Positions 56,217 through 64,000 of a stretch of DNA of 64,000 bases are shown in pieces. Both the position numbers and the translations under genes were made by a program. Source of the DNA: an uncultured Candidatus Saccharibacteria bacterium. Lineage in GTDB: Bacteria > Patescibacteriota > UBA1384 > JAGVHQ01. The stretch lies in the NCBI GenBank assembly GCA_964362865.1, contig CAYIGD010000002.1:4253-68252 (forward strand). Direction: 5' to 3'. Under the pieces are notes generated by a model. It was not told the DNA's origin and ran no database searches. It worked only from the letters and a program-made list of their open reading frames with translations. The first letter of the stretch is position 1; each line of letters starts with the position of its first letter.

Positions 56217-56828
56217 TTATTGACCCCGAGCTGTATCGGGCGTGTGCGTTAGATAAAGAAGCCCGATCTTGGTCAGTTCTGATTTTAAGATTTCGCGACT
56301 GCGTTGATCTTGCCACCACAGATCTTGCTGGTACCAACTCGCTCGGGCGGGCACGCTCACGACCGTAACATTTTTACCCAACGCACGTCTAAACGAAATC
56401 AATGCACGGCGCTGATGGTAGGCGGAACTGACTAAAATTATGGAATTAAGATGACGCTCTTTCACAATCTGGGCGACGTTGCGGGCGTTTTCAAACGTGT
56501 CCCGCGCATTTTCTTCCATGAGAATGTGGTCGTTACTTACGCCTTGTTTTCGGGCGAGAGCCCCCATTGCTTCGGCGTTTGAAACCTCTCCTGCGCGTGC
56601 CGCTCCGGAAAAGATGAGCAGCGGGGCAAAGCCCTCCTTGTACAAAGCGATCCCTTTTTCCGGCCGTTCCAAACCACCCCCTGAGATCACAACAATCGCA
56701 TCGGCCGCGTGCACAGCGTCTTCTGCCGCGATCCAGTTGCCTAACTTAGCGTAAAAAATATGCCGGCTCAGATACAGCACGGCGGTAAGAGCTAAAAAAA
56801 ATATAAAAATAAGAGCGAGTTTTTTCAT
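56217..56828 (-). CDS. DUF218 (YdcF/ElyC/SanA-like) membrane-anchored protein
   Basis: Signal or anchor peptide, then AIVVISGGG, DTFENA and LVSSAYHQRRA. Start placed at the internal MKKLALIF, 3 nt after the sufU stop. The longer ORF would overlap sufU. Confidence 0.7.
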   Translation of the reverse strand: MKKLALIFIFFLALTAVLYLSRHIFYAKLGNWIAAEDAVHAADAIVVISGGGLERPEKGIALYKEGFAPLLIFSGAARAGEVSNAEAMGALARKQGVSNDHILMEENARDTFENARNVAQIVKERHLNSIILVSSAYHQRRALISFRRALGKNVTVVSVPARASWYQQDLWWQDQRSREILKSELTKIGLLYLTHTPDTARGQ

Positions 56829-57190
56829 TTTTGCAGGACAGAGTGCAAAGCTAAAATAGGTAAGAACGTACATTGAGCGCGTGCCGGGTTTGGAGAAATA
56901 CCAAGTTCTTTTAAGAGCGTGCCCGGCGTAATCGTAGCAATTTCTGTTTGCGATTTTCCAACAATCATATCGGAAAGCACAGAGGCCGCCGCAATCGAAA
57001 CTGCGCATCCTGAGGTCAAAAAAGCGACCTCCGCTAAGATATCTTTTTCCCAACGCACTTGGATTCTCACAGAGTCGCCACAGGCCTCATTTGTTTTGAT
57101 CGCTTCAGCATCCGCTTTGCTCAACGCTTGTGCGTGATGCGGAGTGCGAAAGTGGTCGAGAATGATTTGGCGGTACAGTTCTGAGCTCAT
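56825..57190 (-). CDS. sufU: SUF system Fe-S cluster scaffold, NifU/SufU-like
   Basis: ILDHFRTPHHAQ...EACGDSVRIQV...LTSGCAVSIAAAS is the three-Cys IscU/SufU fold. Confidence 0.8.
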   Translation of the reverse strand: MSSELYRQIILDHFRTPHHAQALSKADAEAIKTNEACGDSVRIQVRWEKDILAEVAFLTSGCAVSIAAASVLSDMIVGKSQTEIATITPGTLLKELGISPNPARAQCTFLPILALHSVLQK

Positions 57191-58392
57191 CTAAAAACTC
57201 GGTGTACTTTCTCAAGTCCTTCAATCAGCCGGTCTACATCGGTTTTACTGGTATACACATGGATTGATGCGCGTACACTGGGGGGAAGCCGATACGCTTC
57301 ATGCAGAGGTTGGGCGCAATGAAAACCAGCTCTGACGGCCACCGTGTACTCGTCCAAAATACTTGCCACATCATGCGCTGGAACACCATCGAGTTGAAAT
57401 GCGAATACCCCCAGTCGCTCCTGTGCCTCCGATGGGCCGAATAACGTAATAAACGGCAACTGTTTCAGTTGCGCGAGGGTATAGACTATAATTTCTTGTT
57501 CATGCTCTTTCAGTGCGTCCAAGCCCAAATGAGCCATGTATTCAACAGCAGCGCCTAAGCCAATCGCCTCTGCGATCGGGGGCGTACCTGCCTCATAGCG
57601 CAGAGGAGCGTCATTCAAGCTAAATTCATCCGCGTGCACTTGGCCAATCATGGAGCCGCCATAGGTAACGGGGCTTAATTGCTCCAAGTATTTTTCCTTT
57701 ACCCAAAGAATTCCGATCCCACTGGGGCCAAGCATTTTATGTCCTGAAAAAAAAGCGAAATCAGGATTAAGCGCGCCCACGTCAATCCCCATGTGGGGAA
57801 CGCTTTGACTGATGTCCAACAGCACCACTGCCCCGGCGCGGTGCGCGGCTGCGATTAAGCTCTGAACATCATTGACCGTCCCGAGCACGTTCGAAGCGTG
57901 TATCAGAGCAACAAAATCTGGTTTTTTCTCAAGAAGTTTGTAAAACTCTTTCACGTTGATTCGGAAGTGACTTGTTAAAGGGGCGATATCAAGCGTTGTC
58001 CCGAACTCTTGCGCGAATTCCAGAGCAGGCACGAAATGGGCATGGTGTTCCATCATTGTGATTAGAATTCTGCTCTTTTGGTTAAGGAATTTCCCCGCCC
58101 ACCCACGAAACACCATATTCGACGATTCAGTCGCGTTACGCGTAAAAATGATCTGCCTAGCGGTGGGCGAACCGATAAATGCCGCGATTTTCTCGCGGGC
58201 GTTTTCGTACCTTTGAGTAGCATATTCACTCAAGTGGTATATACCGCGGTGCACGTTGGCGCTGTAGTGCTCATAGTACTTATCCATCGCTTCGATTACA
58301 GATTGCGGCCGCAAAGAGCTGGCGGCTGAATCGAGATAGATCAAGCCGGTGTTGTTTTTGAGAACACTAAAATCTCCTCGTACATCAAGCAT
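57187..58392 (-). CDS. sufS: Cysteine desulfurase SufS (class V aminotransferase)
   Basis: The PLP Lys is in FSGHKMLGPSGIG, and the catalytic Cys is in RAGFHCAQP. Confidence 0.9.
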   Translation of the reverse strand: MLDVRGDFSVLKNNTGLIYLDSAASSLRPQSVIEAMDKYYEHYSANVHRGIYHLSEYATQRYENAREKIAAFIGSPTARQIIFTRNATESSNMVFRGWAGKFLNQKSRILITMMEHHAHFVPALEFAQEFGTTLDIAPLTSHFRINVKEFYKLLEKKPDFVALIHASNVLGTVNDVQSLIAAAHRAGAVVLLDISQSVPHMGIDVGALNPDFAFFSGHKMLGPSGIGILWVKEKYLEQLSPVTYGGSMIGQVHADEFSLNDAPLRYEAGTPPIAEAIGLGAAVEYMAHLGLDALKEHEQEIIVYTLAQLKQLPFITLFGPSEAQERLGVFAFQLDGVPAHDVASILDEYTVAVRAGFHCAQPLHEAYRLPPSVRASIHVYTSKTDVDRLIEGLEKVHRVFR

Positions 58393-58427
58393 CGCACGTT
58401 CATTTTACCCTACATCTAAGCAACGCT

Positions 58428-59012
58428 CTAGGGTAAACCGGCAATAATCTGACGGTGTGTTTTTCGGGGTGCAATTTGAGACGCCTCGAAAAGAAACGCT
58501 TCTGCCACAAAACGCTCGGCAGCCTTACGTGAAATTCCGCGCGATTGAAGATAAAAAAGGTACTCGGGATTGATCGGAGCGGCAGTGGCGGCATGCGAGG
58601 CCTTCACCTCGTTTGCTTCGATCTCGAGCGACGGGAAAGCATTTGCGCTCGCCCCCTCGCTTAAAATGAGCGAGTCCTGGCGTAGAAAATCAACGGAGTG
58701 TTGGGCCTGTTTTTCTATTTTAATCATTCCTGCAAAATCAAATTGTGCTGTGTCAGTGACAATTGCCTTTACAAGCGTTTCACTTTTGGTATGGGGGGCT
58801 TTGTGAACTGTATCAACGCGTAGCTTCAGCTCGTTTTGCCCGTTGAGTACTCCCGCTCCGAAGACGCGGCACTGCGCGGCTTCCGCTTTCAGAACTAGCG
58901 TACAACTAAAATTACCGCTAAGTCCAGTAAACGGGATAAAGAAATCCACGGGATTCTGATCGGTAATCGTAATTGTTTGTGAGGGTTTGCTCAGTGCGAG
59001 TACTTTAACCAA
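58428..59012 (-). CDS. sufD: Fe-S cluster assembly protein SufD (short form)
   Basis: SufB/D C-terminal beta-helix. Gene order is sufC-sufB-this-sufS. Only 194 aa. Confidence 0.7.
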   Translation of the reverse strand: MVKVLALSKPSQTITITDQNPVDFFIPFTGLSGNFSCTLVLKAEAAQCRVFGAGVLNGQNELKLRVDTVHKAPHTKSETLVKAIVTDTAQFDFAGMIKIEKQAQHSVDFLRQDSLILSEGASANAFPSLEIEANEVKASHAATAAPINPEYLFYLQSRGISRKAAERFVAEAFLFEASQIAPRKTHRQIIAGLP

Positions 59013-60414
59013 CGCTACCTTCCATTTCCAACAAGATTAGGCGGTTGAGCTCGATGGCGTACTCAAGCGGTAAGGTTTTCACGATCGGCTCAATGAAGCC
59101 GTTGACGACCATCGCGGATGCCTCCGTTTCCGAAAGACCCCTCGAGCGCAGATAAAACAGCTGTTCATCCCCGATTTTACTGACGGTTGCCTCGTGTCCG
59201 ATTGTAACGTTTTTAGCGCGTACCTCAATCGTGGGGTAGGTATCGGAACGGCTTAGCTTGTCCAAGATTAAGGCGTCGCAACGCACTGTTGAGCGCGCGC
59301 TGTCGGCTTGGGGCGTGATATGGAGCAAGCCGCGATATGAGGTGCGTCCACCGCCTTTAGAGATTGACTTAGAGGTAATAAGCGAGGTTGTTTCAGGTGC
59401 GACGTGAATTGCCTTGCCGCCGGCGTCTTGATGCTGACCCGCTCCCGCAAACGCGAGCGATAATACCTCGCCGTGTGCCTTGCGGCCCACCAAATATACA
59501 CTGGGGTATTTCATCGTAACCCGAGAGCCCAAATTCCCGTCAATCCACTCCATAACGCCTTCTTCTTCCACCCGGGCGCGCTTAGTGACAAGGTTGTACA
59601 CATCTTTCGACCAGTTTTGAATCGTAGTATAACGCACTCGCGCGCCTTTTTTGACAAAGATTTCCACTACGGCCGCGTGTAAAGAGTCCGAGGCATAAAC
59701 GGGCGCGGTACAACCCTCGACATAGTGCACGGATGAGCCCTCTTCCGCGACAATCAGGGTCCGCTCAAACTGCCCCATATTCTTGGCGTTAATGCGGAAA
59801 TAAGCCTGGAGCGGTAATTCAACATGCACGCCTGAGGGAATGTACACAAACGATCCGCCTGACCACGCGGCTGAGTTGAGTGCCGCAAACTTATTGTCGG
59901 AAGCTGGAATGAGCTTTCCAAAGTACTGCTGTACGATTTCCGGGTGTTCGCGCAAGCCGGAATCCATGTCGGTAAAGATCACTCCCTGTTTAGAAAGTTT
60001 CTCGTGCACGGAGTGGTAGATCACTTCCGAGTCATACTGCGCGCCCACACCGGCTAGGTATTTTTGTTCGGCCTGAGGAATTCCCAGCCGGTCGAAAGTG
60101 CGTTTCATGCTTGAAGGGACGTCATCCCACGATTTAAGCTGAACGGAGACTGGTTTGAGGTAGTAGAAAATGGTGTCGAAGTTGATTCGCGAAAGATCAG
60201 CGCCCCAAGTGGGCATTTGTTTAGCCTGAAAGGTTTGATAGCTTTGCAAGCGAAACGCCCTCATCCATGAAGGCTCATGCTTGTGGTTCGAGATTGACTC
60301 GACCACGGTACTCGAAAGCCCACGGGGGGCTTTATACACCGATTCCTCAGGTTCGTTAAAACCGAAGCGGTACGTATCGAGTTCGGCAGCGATTTTGTTC
60401 TGGATGCTTTTCAT
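59005..60414 (-). CDS. sufB: Fe-S cluster assembly protein SufB
   Basis: 469 aa, SufB family with a conserved C-terminus (NGFIEPIVKTLPLEYAIELNRLI). Confidence 0.92.
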   Translation of the reverse strand: MKSIQNKIAAELDTYRFGFNEPEESVYKAPRGLSSTVVESISNHKHEPSWMRAFRLQSYQTFQAKQMPTWGADLSRINFDTIFYYLKPVSVQLKSWDDVPSSMKRTFDRLGIPQAEQKYLAGVGAQYDSEVIYHSVHEKLSKQGVIFTDMDSGLREHPEIVQQYFGKLIPASDNKFAALNSAAWSGGSFVYIPSGVHVELPLQAYFRINAKNMGQFERTLIVAEEGSSVHYVEGCTAPVYASDSLHAAVVEIFVKKGARVRYTTIQNWSKDVYNLVTKRARVEEEGVMEWIDGNLGSRVTMKYPSVYLVGRKAHGEVLSLAFAGAGQHQDAGGKAIHVAPETTSLITSKSISKGGGRTSYRGLLHITPQADSARSTVRCDALILDKLSRSDTYPTIEVRAKNVTIGHEATVSKIGDEQLFYLRSRGLSETEASAMVVNGFIEPIVKTLPLEYAIELNRLILLEMEGSVG

Positions 60415-61157
60415 CAGCTAATTTTTTGCTCTGCAAGCTGCGCATAACCGGTTTTTTCAAGTTTTTTAGCAAGTCCAAATGTTCCTGAGCGCACGATTGT
60501 CCCACGCAACATAATATGTACAAAATCGGGTTTGATAAAATTGAGCAGCCGCTGGTAGTGCGTAATCAAGACAATTGCGCGCTTTGCACTACGCAAAGCG
60601 TTAATCCCGCTCGCAACGGTGCCAAGCGAATCAATATCCAGCCCGGAGTCGGTTTCGTCTAAAATCGCGTACGCGGGTTCCAGTACGGCCATCTGCAGGA
60701 TTTCGTTGCGCTTTTTCTCTCCACCCGAGAAGTTTTCGTTCAGGGAACGCTCGATGAAGTCGTCTTTAATGTGCAAAGGGCGCGCTTTTTCTTGAACCAA
60801 GCGGCGCAGTTTAATGGGAGTAAGCTTTTCTTTTTTGAGCGAATTGTAGGCAAGGCGTAAAAAAGCGGTAATGCTGACTCCCGGGATTTCAATGGGGTAC
60901 TGAAATCCCAAAAATAAGCCCAGTTGGGCGCGCTTCTCAGGCATTAGGCGGTTGATTATTTTTCCATCCAAGATGATTTTCCCCTTAGTAATCGCGTAAC
61001 TTGGATGTCCCATGAGTACGTGTGCCAAGGTTGATTTACCGCTCCCATTCGGGCCCATGATCGCGTGCACTTCACCCTTGTTCACCGTAAGGTCAAGCCC
61101 ATGCAGGATCGCTACTTTTCCTGCGCTTACGTGCAGGTTGGAAATCGCTAGACTCAT
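60414..61157 (-). CDS. sufC: Fe-S cluster assembly ATPase SufC
   Basis: Walker A GPNGSGKST, ABC signature FSGGEKKR and Walker B AILDETDSGLD. Confidence 0.93.
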   Translation of the reverse strand: MSLAISNLHVSAGKVAILHGLDLTVNKGEVHAIMGPNGSGKSTLAHVLMGHPSYAITKGKIILDGKIINRLMPEKRAQLGLFLGFQYPIEIPGVSITAFLRLAYNSLKKEKLTPIKLRRLVQEKARPLHIKDDFIERSLNENFSGGEKKRNEILQMAVLEPAYAILDETDSGLDIDSLGTVASGINALRSAKRAIVLITHYQRLLNFIKPDFVHIMLRGTIVRSGTFGLAKKLEKTGYAQLAEQKIS

Positions 61158-61396
61158 TTTTTTTCAGGTTGCTTTGTATTTTTCTCAACTGCCTGGTTTA
61201 TTTCCTCTAACATTTCGTCTACCTCTTGGTCGCTCATCCCGTGCAGTTTGGCCCCGTTTTCCACGCTATCAAACCGATTCGCAAAACAACCCACACAATG
61301 CAGGCCATATTCCAGCATTACTTTTGCGGCCTCGGGGTGTTTGGCGGCCAGCTCCCCCAGATTTTGCTCCCGTTTAATCTCTAGCATCTCTATCAC
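61154..61396 (-). CDS. DUF1858-type redox-disulfide small protein (hybrid-cluster-protein-associated domain)
   Basis: 80 aa with a GLHCVGC motif. Overlaps the sufC start by 4 nt. Confidence 0.6.
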   Translation of the reverse strand: MIEMLEIKREQNLGELAAKHPEAAKVMLEYGLHCVGCFANRFDSVENGAKLHGMSDQEVDEMLEEINQAVEKNTKQPEKK

Positions 61397-61522: not shown

Positions 61523-62455
61523 ATGTCGACATTGGTTTCCGATATTGGACGGGGGATATTCGGCGGTCAAATGTCGATATTCCTGTATGTGAAAAAGGGG
61601 GGGCGGCTCACTTTTTCGGTAGTTCGCTACCTAGGATTCATCGGTGTGCACCTACCGATGCTCTATGCCCTACTCTGGGTGCTCGACCGTGGCGGGTTAG
61701 AACGCAACCTAGGGGCTGCCTGGTGGGCAATGCTGTTCACCTTTATTGGGATGCGAGTGGGGATGTCACTTGCGGAGTACTTGTTCCACCGGGACATTCT
61801 CCACGCGGCTCCCTGGCCGTGGGTCAACCGCTTTTATAGAGCGCATGAACTCCATCATGCGCTCACGCCGGCCAAGGCCTACGCCATTGAGAAAGAAGAA
61901 CAACTCGAGGCGGCCGTGTTTCCCGCCTACACGCTCCTCGCGTTTTGGGCTGTGTTCAGTTGCCTGATTGTGCCAGGGCAACTGTTAATCCCTCAGGTCC
62001 CCATCTATCTCGGCGGATATATGGCGATCGTTTCGGCGCTGGTTGACTATGAGATCATGCACGCCGCCTTCCATCGGCCCTATGCGTGGTGGCAGCGGTA
62101 CCTGGAGCATTCCCTGCCCTGGGTGCGTTGGATGGCTGACCGAGCATACAAGTACCACCTCATGCACCATGAGTGCAATACGTGCAATGAAGCCATTGCC
62201 GGATGCGGCTATTACGCGGTCTGGGACAAGTGGTTCAAAACACTCAAGATGCCAAAACACCCGCTTGTGGAGGGCACACTCGATCCGCGCGAAGATCTCG
62301 AGGCGCCGATTGCCTCGAGATTTATCCGCAGGCTTGATTGTGCGGTAGCAATTCATCAAGCGATATGGAAGTTGGAAGAAAGTACGGGACAAAAGCTAAC
62401 CCGTGAGGAAAAAAGCAAAATTGTCGCACAAAAAAGAGTTCGCTGCGCGTTGTAG
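61523..62455 (+). CDS. Fatty acid hydroxylase / sterol desaturase superfamily integral membrane protein
   Basis: Hydrophobic N-terminal half with four His boxes: HRDILH, HELHH, HAAFH and HLMHH. A strong RBS (AAGGGGTGAG) lies 6 nt upstream of the ATG. A rho-independent terminator follows immediately. Confidence 0.7.
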   Translation: MSTLVSDIGRGIFGGQMSIFLYVKKGGRLTFSVVRYLGFIGVHLPMLYALLWVLDRGGLERNLGAAWWAMLFTFIGMRVGMSLAEYLFHRDILHAAPWPWVNRFYRAHELHHALTPAKAYAIEKEEQLEAAVFPAYTLLAFWAVFSCLIVPGQLLIPQVPIYLGGYMAIVSALVDYEIMHAAFHRPYAWWQRYLEHSLPWVRWMADRAYKYHLMHHECNTCNEAIAGCGYYAVWDKWFKTLKMPKHPLVEGTLDPREDLEAPIASRFIRRLDCAVAIHQAIWKLEESTGQKLTREEKSKIVAQKRVRCAL

Positions 62456-62471
62456 TGAGAAAGGGGTGTCG

Positions 62472-62503
62472 CGGCCGGGGCAGAGTGCCCCGGCCGTTTT
62501 TTT
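62472..62503 (+). terminator. Rho-independent terminator
   Basis: CGGCCGGGG-cagagtg-CCCCGGCCG followed by TTTTTTT. It also sits 3' of the convergent ferredoxin gene and could act bidirectionally. Confidence 0.7.
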
Positions 62504-62508
62504 ATTTG

Positions 62509-62751
62509 TTACGGATAGATCTGTTTACCGCTTTTATCTTTGAGGATAATCGCGTTCACCGGGCAGGATTGAGCTGCGTCGCGAATGGTTTTGGAATCCG
62601 CTCCATTTGGGTTTTTGACAATCGCAATTCCTTCACTGTCGAGCTCAAAAACGTCGGGCGCGATCGCCACACAACTGGCAGAGCCAATGCACAGCTTTCG
62701 ATCAACCTCAACCGAGCCGATTTCTTCAGAGTTCGCGCTGGGATCTGCCAT
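62509..62751 (-). CDS. Small ferredoxin (single [3Fe-4S]/[4Fe-4S] cluster type)
   Basis: 80 aa with CIGSASCVAIAPDVFE...CPVNAI, the Cys pattern of single-cluster ferredoxins. Confidence 0.8.
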   Translation of the reverse strand: MADPSANSEEIGSVEVDRKLCIGSASCVAIAPDVFELDSEGIAIVKNPNGADSKTIRDAAQSCPVNAIILKDKSGKQIYP

Positions 62752-63153
62752 CTAATCCTCGACGTTCACTGTGCCAATCGCCGACGGATTTAAGTGGTTA
62801 TGGTATCCGAACGAACCGACCTTGTCAAAGGTAAAAGAATAGGTAGCACCCGCTTGAAGTTCATCCGATTCAAATCCGCTCAATCCCGTATGAGCGGGGT
62901 GGGGGTTAGAGGCAACCTGCACCGTGCCGCCGTTGACGGTCCAGGTAACGGTTGTTTCCCTTTTCACGATAATGGTCGCAGGGTTAAAATTGTTGGATGT
63001 CGCACTCACTTCGTTTACAAATGCGTTTGGCTCTTGTTGTTCCTCGGTAGTAACTGGCCCCTCTAAAGTAGGATTACTGCGATTTTTGGCAAAAAACCAA
63101 ATCCCGACGGCCACAACAAGCACGATCACGATCACAAGCCATATTTTAGACAC
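62752..63153 (-). CDS. Membrane-anchored cupredoxin-like domain protein (no Cys ligand)
   Basis: N-terminal TM followed by the cupredoxin-type pattern FNPATIIV...TVTWTVNGG...H...GATYSFTF...GSFGYHNHLNPSAIGTVNV. His residues are retained but the type-1 copper Cys is absent. Its stop abuts the ferredoxin start. Confidence 0.45.
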   Translation of the reverse strand: MSKIWLVIVIVLVVAVGIWFFAKNRSNPTLEGPVTTEEQQEPNAFVNEVSATSNNFNPATIIVKRETTVTWTVNGGTVQVASNPHPAHTGLSGFESDELQAGATYSFTFDKVGSFGYHNHLNPSAIGTVNVED

Positions 63154-63162
63154 TTTGACCTC

Positions 63163-64000
63163 CTAATGTACTTTGACTATAACAGAACGGTTTGGAATTT
63201 TGCGCAGAAGCCCTGCGGTTGATCCGACGTGGCGGACAACACTGGCGGAATTGAGGGTTGCCTTGCGTAGGGCATTGCGCGGGTCTTCTTGGGTAAGCAG
63301 CGTAGCGAAAAACGTAGACGCGAACGCGTCTCCGGCACCCGTGGAATCCACCATCGGGACGCGGGGAGCTACAGCTTCGAGCGTGAGCCCGTCGAACAAG
63401 AGCAGTGAACCATATTTTCCCTTGGTAATGACGCAATACGGCGTGCTAAGATCGCGGAAAAACTGCTCTGCTTGGCGCAAAGTTTCCTCACCGCTCACGC
63501 GTGCTGCTTCGGATTCGTTCAAAATTAAGACATCAACAAGTTCGGCGTTCGCTTGAAATCGGCGTTGATCGGCAAAGTCAAGCGCCCCGGGCGTCCAGCA
63601 GATCTTCATTCTGTGCCCTCGCGCGCTTTTGAAGATTCGGTATGTTTGCGTCGGCGCAAGATGATGCGCGCTGTAGTAGAGTGCCGTGCCATTGTGCAAA
63701 CGCACCAGCATATCCTGAGCACTCAGCGCATGCGAGCCGACATCATAGGTAAAGATCGTGCGCTCTCCTGATTTAGTGAGGATGATGAACGATTCCCCAG
63801 TCGGCTGGTGGGAAACTTCTGCGAGAGACCGGATCCTTTCTTTGTGGCAGTGGGCCAACACATCCACCCGTGCGTGATCTTCGCCTACCGTGGAAATCAG
63901 GTAGGGCGTATGGCCGAGACGCGCAAAACAGGTCGCGGCATTCAGCGCTCCGCCCCCGACCGTGCGGGTAACACGGGTAAGGTCAATTTTTGCCCCGAGC
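63163..64000 (-). CDS. PfkB-family carbohydrate kinase (ribokinase-like), 5' end beyond the window
   Basis: C-terminal DSTGAGDAFASTFFATLL motif. Manual minus-strand translation upstream of 63867 continues open to the window edge and contains GGGALNAATCFARLGH, a Gly-rich sugar-binding motif. Confidence 0.8.
   Translation of the reverse strand, partial: LGAKIDLTRVTRTVGGGALNAATCFARLGHTPYLISTVGEDHARVDVLAHCHKERIRSLAEVSHQPTGESFIILTKSGERTIFTYDVGSHALSAQDMLVRLHNGTALYYSAHHLAPTQTYRIFKSARGHRMKICWTPGALDFADQRRFQANAELVDVLILNESEAARVSGEETLRQAEQFFRDLSTPYCVITKGKYGSLLLFDGLTLEAVAPRVPMVDSTGAGDAFASTFFATLLTQEDPRNALRKATLNSASVVRHVGSTAGLLRKIPNRSVIVKVH

Follow-up and report, generated by a model that had tools for sequence, protein, structure and literature searches.

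Two small adjoining genes in the 64,000-nucleotide stretch of DNA analysed here (the window) encode a membrane-anchored protein of 133 residues with a cupredoxin fold and a ferredoxin of 80 residues. We propose that they are unrelated genes that close, on its 3' side, a compact operon of housekeeping genes (rpiB, an unknown gene, fba and pfkB). The first product would be a cell-surface protein held by its N-terminal helix, with a plastocyanin/amicyanin-like fold in which four invariant His residues, within or next to the former copper site, would bind a single ion, either a non-blue Cu(II) of a type-2-like kind or some other divalent metal. Its task at the surface would be to handle copper, or to oxidise Fe2+, Cu+ or superoxide with the help of its metal, a role nearer to that of the Cys-less Cup-II proteins FtrB and EfeO than to that of an electron shuttle. 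The second would be a cytoplasmic ferredoxin that, judging from its gene context, gives electrons to Fe-S cluster assembly or repair. The two genes would be neighbours because in two lineages the cupredoxin gene adjoins the cluster for SUF and oxidative stress, and their products would form no direct redox pair. We assign this explanation, taken as a whole, a probability of about 0.55.

Organization of the locus

The kinase, cupredoxin and ferredoxin genes form a tightly coupled trio with a hairpin at its end (Table 1), positioned as in the original prediction. That prediction also placed a ribokinase-like sugar kinase upstream, which is confirmed by the Pfam PfkB match. The complete kinase comprises 323 aa in the source contig (L082) and reaches no NCBIfam equivalog at cut-off, the best match being ribokinase with 89.8 bits against 299.65. 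The gene order in the source contig is rpiB, a 204-aa unknown gene, a class II FBP aldolase and then the kinase, whose gene overlaps that of the aldolase by 26 nt. The kinase is part of this rpiB-fba-pfkB sugar-phosphate block, and its link to the two small genes is one of operon packing.

Table 1. Positions in the window of the genes, motifs and signals discussed in the text.
Feature	Position	Strand	Evidence and remarks
PfkB-family sugar kinase	63163..64000, 5' end outside window	-	3' 278 codons; Pfam PfkB 2.3e-35, 122.9 bits (cut-off 25.8)
Shine-Dalgarno AGGAGG of the 133-aa gene	63159..63164	-	overlaps kinase stop TAG (63163-63165); reads CAT TAG GAGGTCAAA GTG
Cys-less four-His cupredoxin-fold protein, 133 aa, membrane-anchored	62752..63153	-	translation
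N-terminal transmembrane anchor, residues 4-23, IWLVIVIVLVVAVGIWFFAK	63085..63144	-	AF2 helix 4-23; translation
Extracytoplasmic cupredoxin domain, residues 46-133	62755..63018	-	
Motif PHPAHT (P84-T89)	62887..62904	-	alignment A1; HMM alignment to amicyanin
Motif GSFGYHNH (G113-H120)	62794..62817	-	alignment A1; amicyanin alignment
Soluble ferredoxin, 80 aa, single cluster, three Cys	62509..62751	-	Fer4_13, Fer4_15, Fer4_19 above cut-off
Cluster motif C21-I-G-S-A-S-C27	62671..62691	-	second canonical Cys is Ser here, Ala in relatives
C63-P64, third cluster ligand (CP motif)	62560..62565	-	
Hairpin, GC-rich, 12 pairs	62471..62497	.	T-run on + strand, A-run on other side; terminator scan and sequence
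FA_hydroxylase-superfamily membrane di-iron gene	61523..62455	+	convergent; Pfam FA_hydroxylase 36.6 bits
SUF operon: DUF1858, sufC, sufB, sufD, sufS, sufU	56825..61396	-	Pfam and NCBIfam matches; L082 gene calls

The cupredoxin gene starts with GTG, 5 nt after its AGGAGG, and the ATG of the ferredoxin gene abuts its TAG stop codon; the two genes are translationally coupled at this locus. The hairpin is a bidirectional terminator common to the ferredoxin operon and to the convergent FA_hydroxylase-superfamily gene. The latter also scores 158.6 bits against NCBIfam TrhA_N_extend, under the cut-off of 200, and is found in the same arrangement in L001, the nearest of the genome loci, and in two ferredoxin loci. 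Its di-iron product is perhaps a second client of the ferredoxin, on the cytoplasmic face of the membrane. The SUF operon is 1.3 kb away. An Rfam scan of the whole window gave no match, and a promoter scan gave nothing beyond the expectation from shuffled sequence. Neither the window nor the source contig encodes CsoR, HMA proteins, SOD, peroxiredoxin, DoxX or AMP phosphorylase, and copper-homeostasis genes are absent from the window.

The cupredoxin fold and its putative metal site

The 133-aa protein is devoid of Cys and of internal Met, and its only His, four in number, are at positions 85, 88, 118 and 120. It has a cupredoxin Greek-key beta-sandwich fold of the plastocyanin/amicyanin kind, as predicted by AF2 (pLDDT 88) and by a match of the family profile to amicyanin in a search of the PDB (2e-9); the membrane-anchored cupredoxin of the original prediction thus holds. 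The amicyanin alignment places H85 on H53, the N-terminal of the His ligands, and N119 on the ligand C92, the blue-copper Cys. In the AF2 model the ligand loop is down to H120-L121, located between strands 113-119 and 122-132, which leaves a two-residue turn where blue-copper proteins carry their second His and the Met. Without Cys, Met or a C-terminal loop His, the protein cannot, as far as its sequence tells, build a type-1 site, which was also the view of the original prediction. It differs in these respects from amicyanin, plastocyanin and the N. maritimus cupredoxins (type 1, PF00127), and further in its membrane anchor and in additional invariant His, one of them three residues after the first His (+3) and one on either side of the former Cys.

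Several members of the family, including a 78%-identical homologue, bear the JGI label 'plastocyanin', and single-domain cupredoxins have been invoked as NirK donors in papers on CPR bacteria (PMC5581439, PMC12931201). Both would fit a classical plastocyanin-type electron carrier, such as a donor to NirK. We regard this reading as extremely improbable: the Pfam Copper-bind score (PF00127) is 14.9 bits, under the cut-off of 21.2 that some relatives pass, and no NirK or Cu-oxidase genes occur among the common neighbours at 80 cupredoxin loci. A carrier of this type is refuted at the sequence level by the three missing ligands.

We performed a genome scan for relatives of the protein. This analysis revealed 423 of them, mostly from CPR bacteria and some from DPANN archaea, according to the names of the records. 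A profile search retrieved 8283 proteins at E<=1e-10, a number to be read as an upper bound since classical Cys-containing repeat proteins also score. H85, P86, H88, G113, Y117, H118 and H120 are invariant in a 53-sequence alignment (A1). A strict regular expression finds the PHPAHT-type motif in 126 of 156 short family members and [YF]H[ND]H in 152, the other four being variants (three with GYHNH after His, one with GFHHH). The former Cys position is Asn or Asp across the family, with [YF]HDH making up 21 of 153 motif occurrences. All 53 aligned members match PF13473 (Cupredoxin_1) at E<=1, several of them with more than 27 bits, the cut-off, against which the window protein scores 17.5 bits. 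Sub-threshold Cu-oxidase matches of family members fall mostly outside the HCH region. The family is not described in the literature that we consulted on cupredoxins of Patescibacteria, CPR and DPANN, on ancestral single-domain MCOs and on Cys-less type-2 proteins. A short five-His cupredoxin-like protein adjoining a nosZ-like gene is reported in a paper on DPANN archaea, and may or may not be kin of the four-His family.

The cupredoxin domain is assigned to the outside of the membrane because homologues carry lipoboxes in place of the N-terminal anchor (LVGC in L014, LSAC in L020, LAGC in P0007) and Cys-pair inserts, indicative of a disulfide, which are present in 48 of 156 members. Relatives carry the domain in fusions with Fn3 and further surface domains. 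These fusions, as well as the lack of a conserved metal-handling partner, would suit a metal-free structural, adhesion or interaction module of the surface, comparable to ephrins and copper-less phytocyanin-like proteins, in which the His residues serve folding or partner binding. The chances of such a module are nevertheless slim, given that the four invariant His cluster together with invariant Pro, Tyr and Gly in the two segments from which homologues form their copper site. The window protein has no His besides these, and a pattern of this kind typically marks a metal site.

The arrangement of these His residues resembles the MCO/NirK motifs HPxHxH and HCH, with H85-P-x-H88 and H118-N-H120 located where those proteins have their T1 His, their T2 His and the pair of His flanking the T1 Cys. 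H85-P-x-H88 matches H-P-F-H-I-H of CueO, and N119, which aligns with the T1 Cys, has a His on both sides, as in A-H-C-H of the same enzyme. H88, H118 and H120 accordingly stand at type-2/type-3 ligand positions, given the CueO ligand roles, which we take to be established. An oligomeric oxidase or reductase could therefore be envisaged, with copper bound between the subunits of a homo-oligomer as in NirK or MCOs, and the protein as a single-domain relative of their presumed ancestor. MCO and NirK proteins have two or more cupredoxin domains per chain, or form a trimer with interfacial copper; the window protein has a single domain. The existence of tandem two-domain members (P0069, P0087) and weak Pfam matches to Cu-oxidase_2 (12 of 53 members) and Cu-oxidase_3 (6 of 53) agree with this idea. 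However, the family HMM (A1) does not match E. coli CueO even with filters off (--max), and the Cu-oxidase_2 matches are sub-threshold (best 19.3 against 20.4 bits), aligning in P0008, P0028 and P0034 at the N-terminal part of the profile, outside the HCH region. In addition, of the four His positions of the TNC type one is lacking. We consider this oligomer quite unlikely.

A non-blue Cu(II) site, as in the explanation that we favour, would have a parallel in the engineered azurin C112D ('type 2' and 'type zero' copper), since a cupredoxin in which Cys is replaced by a carboxylate or amide reportedly still binds Cu(II). That laboratory mutant keeps both native His ligands, whereas the four-His family has lost the C-terminal loop His and draws on other His instead. 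Work on Cys-replaced azurin is cited in PMC11966278. Against the favoured explanation, positional mapping indicates that H85 may lie about 10 Å from H88, H118 and H120.

The Cys-less state is shared with the Cup-II cupredoxins (Pfam PF13473) FtrB (PDB 8VUK) and the N-terminal domain of EfeO (7WGU). The four His of the window protein differ from the ligands of FtrB, which are described as Asp/His for Cu2+ and Glu residues for Fe2+. No significant match was obtained in the PDB profile search to the Bacillus anthracis Cupredoxin_1 protein (4HCF with Cu, 4HCG with Zn).

The ferredoxin and the gene neighbourhoods

The ferredoxin is a single-cluster protein, as the original prediction had it, with 51.4 bits for Fer4_13 (cut-off 24.5) and 50.8 bits for Fer4_15 (cut-off 22.4). 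Its only invariant Cys in an alignment of 11 orthologues (A4) are C21, C27 and C63. By motif it is predicted to be of the [3Fe-4S] type, and it resembles in both motif and size the three-Cys single-cluster ferredoxins of that type (CxxAxxC...CP; Fer4_13, Fer4_15). Neither a signal peptide nor a TM segment is found; the protein is soluble and cytoplasmic.

Within 1.5 kb of the ferredoxin gene, SufU is encoded at 40 of 80 loci, SufS at 39, an Fe/Mn SOD at 38 and the cupredoxin at 8. Among the 46 of these loci with full flanks, the corresponding counts are 26 for SufU, 31 for SufS, 25 for SOD and 4 for the cupredoxin. The usual setting of the ferredoxin is thus a sufS-sufU-fdx-sod cluster. In most relatives its gene belongs to a cluster for Fe-S assembly, as does that of ISC Fdx; the latter differs in being a [2Fe-2S] protein of another fold, and the SUF role suggested for the window ferredoxin derives from gene context.

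The surroundings of the cupredoxin gene are more varied. Unbiased clustering and a Pfam census of the neighbours at 80 cupredoxin loci revealed no dominant partner, the top families being present at 7 loci or fewer, and the function of the family is weakly constrained because of this. Some neighbourhoods connect the family with copper and oxidative stress: DoxX is a direct neighbour in 7 loci, a CsoR or BlaI/CopY-like repressor and an HMA-DsbD-Cupredoxin_1 fusion are encoded about 3 kb downstream in 6 loci, and an Fe/Mn SOD gene stands between the ferredoxin and cupredoxin genes in 5 loci. A second cupredoxin gene accompanies the family gene at no loci other than L020 and L027. The ferredoxin gene is found within 2 kb in 10 loci, which belong to two clades with differing gene orders.

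The original prediction took the pairing of the electron carrier with the cupredoxin as a hint of an extracytoplasmic redox or metal-binding function, and named the lack of co-conservation as grounds to abandon the idea. Co-conservation is borne out to the extent that the pair recurs in two clades, but it fails as a general rule, with only 10 of 80 cupredoxin loci and 8 of 80 ferredoxin loci having both genes. The redox pairing itself is not upheld: the cupredoxin domain lies outside the membrane, the ferredoxin in the cytoplasm, and no nearby gene encodes a conduit for electrons in the membrane. A better explanation of the adjacency is that both genes have their place beside the SUF and oxidative-stress cluster, and the ferredoxin is probably not the redox partner of the cupredoxin. 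Some functional link of the pair is possible, in view of its recurrence in two clades and the translational coupling seen here.

A concrete form of the original idea would be an FtrB/EfeO-like ferroxidase: Fe2+ would be oxidised for uptake by the cupredoxin at the surface, with the ferredoxin as the final acceptor of the electron, and the iron would feed SUF. In the FtrABCD system the electron has reportedly been proposed to pass from FtrB to the polyferredoxin FtrD. FtrB provides a precedent, being a Cu2+ ferroxidase without Cys whose operon also encodes a ferredoxin-like protein (PMC11966278), and the nearby SUF operon, like the recurrent and coupled ferredoxin adjacency, is in line with this scheme. 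The ferredoxin of the window, however, is small, soluble and SUF-associated, with no transmembrane route for electrons, and a membrane polyferredoxin is absent both from the window and from the common neighbours. Ftr1/EfeU permease, P19 and EfeB are absent from the window, the source contig and the top neighbour families of the 80 loci, and the pair occurs in only 10-12% of loci. All this makes the ferroxidase scheme improbable.

Implications for the family and its hosts

The four-His Cys-less cupredoxins of CPR and DPANN could be conceived as a novel class of natural, non-blue copper centres built on one cupredoxin domain, either as a mononuclear His3-4 'type 2' site or as inter-subunit copper at the catalytic positions of MCOs and NirK, with the protein acting as a surface oxidase for superoxide, Fe2+ or Cu+. 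We hold this broader claim to be unlikely. If it is true, such an oxidase would serve organisms without respiratory chains, and in the inter-subunit case the protein would be a present-day counterpart of the single-domain protein from which multicopper oxidases and NirK descend.

The family, which automated pipelines label 'plastocyanin', cannot build a type-1 site, and is therefore unfit for pathway reconstructions that require a NirK donor. A defined metal site, if true, would extend the short list of Cys-less cupredoxins (FtrB, EfeO) by a natural non-blue one, and would also provide a soluble domain of small size that lends itself to testing. In CPR genomes, the recurrence of the sufS-sufU-fdx-sod module points to an electron donor dedicated to Fe-S assembly by SUF. 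The cupredoxin family is large and sharply conserved, and among the loci examined it belongs mostly to ultra-small episymbiotic bacteria and archaea, the surface biology of which is poorly known.

A cupredoxin fold without a blue-copper site

The best Pfam and NCBIfam matches of the 133-aa protein are all below threshold: Cupredoxin_1 (17.5 bits), Copper-bind (14.9 bits) and the halocyanin domain (31 bits). A homologue search returned 66 relatives. The alignment of 53 sequences comprises a variable transmembrane-plus-linker part followed by a domain of roughly 90 residues, with P58, H85, P86, H88, G113, Y117, H118, H120 and V131 invariant and the consensus motifs ASNPHPxHT and GTWGYHNHLNPS. 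Cys and internal Met are absent from the window protein, and the only four His it has are all invariant. A confident AF2 model built from this alignment (pLDDT 88.4) consists of seven strands and a helix at the N-terminus (residues 4-23), and Foldseek matched it only to cupredoxins in the PDB (E 8e-9 to 1e-5). The family profile matches amicyanin (E 1.9e-9), with H85 at ligand H53 and N119 at ligand C92. The register is firm because the conserved G-T-aromatic-x-aromatic run ahead of the Cys position aligns with amicyanin without indels. The loop that normally holds the second His and the Met is shrunk to H120-L121. Thus, the original prediction was right about both the cupredoxin fold and the inability to form a canonical blue-copper site.

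Scanning one genome per species with motif seeds, we identified 423 relatives. Judged by their record titles, most of the top 80 are Patescibacteria (CPR) and about 10 are DPANN-type or other archaeal MAGs; several records have other taxa assigned by automated labeling, 'uncultured Gammaproteobacteria' among them. When 1.84 billion representatives were searched exhaustively with the profile, 1755 proteins reached E<=1e-30 and 8283 reached E<=1e-10. Both counts are upper bounds, since the profile also picks up classical cupredoxin repeat proteins that contain Cys (P0067, P0068 and P0070, for instance, have 7-10 repeats). Of 156 short family proteins, 152 contain [YF]H[ND]H and the remaining four a variant of it. 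The domain is Cys-free in 107 of the 156; 48 have a Cys pair within an insert, for which an extracellular disulfide is the simplest reading. The domain also comes in tandem pairs or joined to other domains, either Fn3 or a Cys/His-rich repeat domain. Examples are P0069, P0080 and P0081 (about 960-1080 aa for the latter two), P0085, P0087 and P0102; among them, the fused proteins have Fn3 domains or a large repeat domain with CxHGxGHG-like Cys/His motifs beside the four-His domain.

Gene arrangement and neighborhoods

The region 62509-64000 holds three co-oriented genes, as originally proposed. The kinase TAG stop overlaps an AGGAGG Shine-Dalgarno sequence, followed after 5 nt by the GTG of the 133-aa ORF, whose own TAG stop immediately abuts the ferredoxin ATG. 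The hairpin is the terminator of this operon and also of an FA_hydroxylase-like gene that converges on it.

Features of the window and of related loci
Feature	Location	Strand	Details
PfkB-family kinase	63163 to beyond window end	minus	Pfam 122.9 bits; 323 aa on source contig
133-aa ORF	62752-63153	minus	GTG start
80-aa ferredoxin	62509-62751	minus	ATG start
Hairpin	62471-62497		12-bp, GC-rich; A-run on one side, T-run on the other
FA_hydroxylase-superfamily gene	61523-62455	plus	Membrane di-iron type; His boxes HRDILH, HELHH, HAAFH, HLMHH
SUF operon	56825-61396	minus	Complete and compact
Copper-homeostasis island	L020:7080-8796		
Copper-homeostasis island	L027:4312-5964		
Copper-homeostasis island	L014:8092-9753		
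Copper-homeostasis island	L002:8300-9733		
Copper-homeostasis island	L026:8399-10096		
Copper-homeostasis island	L037:4488-5924		

Groundwater contigs from the Hainich aquifer encode an identical 133-aa protein. Their operon runs from a thioredoxin-reductase-like gene through a tRNA synthetase, DUF8173, rpiB, a 204-aa unknown gene, class II FBP aldolase and pfkB to cupredoxin and ferredoxin; beyond lie the convergent FA_hydroxylase gene and DUF1858-sufC-sufB-sufD-sufS-sufU. The nearest genome, a Candidatus Berkelbacteria MAG (L001, 78% identity), has the same gene order. On the source contig (L082:4331-7194 and window 63163-64000), pfkB directly follows rpiB and class II FBP aldolase, the latter with a 26-nt overlap. 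The kinase reaches the cut-off of no NCBIfam equivalog. The phosphofructokinase step is often reported missing from CPR glycolysis, and a PfkB-type kinase beside aldolase might be a source of it.

The original prediction expected the ferredoxin and cupredoxin genes to be co-conserved, which proved true only in part. A ferredoxin orthologue lies within 2 kb of the cupredoxin gene in 10 of 80 cupredoxin loci, against a chance expectation of about 0.3 (an estimate assuming a genome of ~1 Mb). These loci fall into two clades of a poorly resolved neighbor-joining tree (~90 residues): a monophyletic group of nine with the order sufS-sufU-fdx-(Fe/Mn SOD)-cupredoxin-AMP phosphorylase, and a Berkelbacteria pair with the order cupredoxin-fdx. 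Conversely, 80 ferredoxin-centered metagenome loci have, within 1.5 kb, SufU in 40, SufS in 39, Fe/Mn SOD in 38, and DUF1858 and the cupredoxin in 8 each; the 46 ferredoxin loci with full flanks have SufS in 31, SufU in 26, SOD in 25 and cupredoxin in 4. For a single-copy gene, such adjacency greatly exceeds chance, yet it is lineage-restricted, and the primary association of the ferredoxin is with SUF and SOD. The recurring sufS-sufU-ferredoxin-Fe/Mn SOD module suggests that SUF has a dedicated three-Cys ferredoxin in these organisms.

Unbiased clustering and a Pfam census of neighbors revealed no dominant partner of the cupredoxin gene. Besides ferredoxin, recurrent minor neighbors are AMP/thymidine phosphorylase (9 loci), DoxX (7) and SOD (5). 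The small DoxX-family membrane protein (~130 aa) is encoded right behind or overlapping the cupredoxin gene, in two clades (L010, L031, L032, L035, L040, L066 and L074); here the cupredoxin may have another redox partner in the membrane, independent of the ferredoxin. In six loci of the SUF-linked clade, genes for an HMA-DsbD-Cupredoxin_1 fusion and for a repressor of the CsoR or BlaI/CopY-like type lie ~3 kb beyond the cupredoxin gene on its downstream side. These copper-homeostasis islands additionally hold HMA-domain proteins, and upstream in L020 are a peroxiredoxin and a classical Cys-containing cupredoxin.

The ferredoxin and the proposed redox pairing

The ferredoxin scores above the Pfam cut-offs of Fer4_13, Fer4_15 and Fer4_19. 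Only three Cys (C21, C27 and C63, followed by P64) are common to 11 orthologues; the second canonical Cys is Ser in the window and Ala in relatives. The CxxAxxC...CP pattern is a [3Fe-4S] signature.

In several cupredoxin homologues, a lipoprotein signal stands in place of the transmembrane anchor (LVGC in L014, LSAC in L020, LAGC in P0007). Taken with the disulfide inserts and with linkers rich in Pro, Thr and Asn, these signals locate the domain on the outer side of the membrane. The ferredoxin (N-terminus MADPSANSEE) has no hydrophobic segment and is therefore cytoplasmic. Since no membrane electron conduit is encoded near the two genes, direct electron transfer between the proteins is implausible, and with their adjacency also lineage-restricted, the redox pairing hinted at originally appears doubtful.

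The SUF operon lies 1.3 kb from the ferredoxin, with one inverted gene between. It is preceded by a gene for a DUF1858/hybrid-cluster-protein-associated redox disulfide domain, which 8 of the 80 metagenome loci have within 300 bp of the ferredoxin. At 194 aa, the SufD of this operon is unusually short and comprises just the core domain. The intervening FA_hydroxylase gene scores 158.6 bits against NCBIfam TrhA_N_extend, under the cut-off of 200; its arrangement with the ferredoxin recurs in L001 and in two of the 80 ferredoxin loci. Because membrane di-iron enzymes of this type require a cytoplasmic electron donor, it could be a ferredoxin client.

Proposed metal site and function

These four histidines, possibly along with N119 and Y117, would coordinate a metal in a non-blue site. 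The likeliest candidate is Cu(II), given the scaffold, a location outside the cytoplasm and neighbors linked to copper and oxidative stress. We mapped the protein onto multicopper oxidases using the CueO sequence and its established ligand assignments: H85 presumably occupies the T1 His position and H88 the T2 His position (HPxH), with H118 and H120 on either side of the former Cys, like the two His of the H-C-H motif. On this mapping, H88, H118 and H120 would point toward the surface at which interdomain copper sites form in multicopper oxidases and NirK. HMM tests revealed no significant similarity to multicopper oxidases, and the site could be either mononuclear or interfacial. The best functional analogues are Cys-less Cup-II cupredoxins such as FtrB, which uses Asp and His close to the old Cys position to bind Cu2+ and oxidizes Fe2+ (PMC11966278), although the partner genes that define the FtrB system are absent from this locus.

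The family has no dedicated model in Pfam or NCBIfam, and we found no description of it in the literature searched. Automated pipelines label its members 'plastocyanin', and NirK electron donors in CPR have been proposed from such annotations (PMC5581439, PMC12931201); for the four-His family, this role is ruled out by sequence. A short cupredoxin-like protein with five conserved His, reported in two DPANN MAGs from oxygen-deficient zones and encoded directly upstream of a CuA-only nosZ-like gene (PMC10936187), may be related. The family belongs within the cupredoxin superfamily, with an unusual ligand set. We propose, at slightly better than even odds (about 0.55), that the 133-aa protein would be tethered to the cell surface, bind type-2-like copper or another metal, and take part in metal handling or oxidation, while the ferredoxin would serve Fe-S assembly or repair in the cytoplasm.
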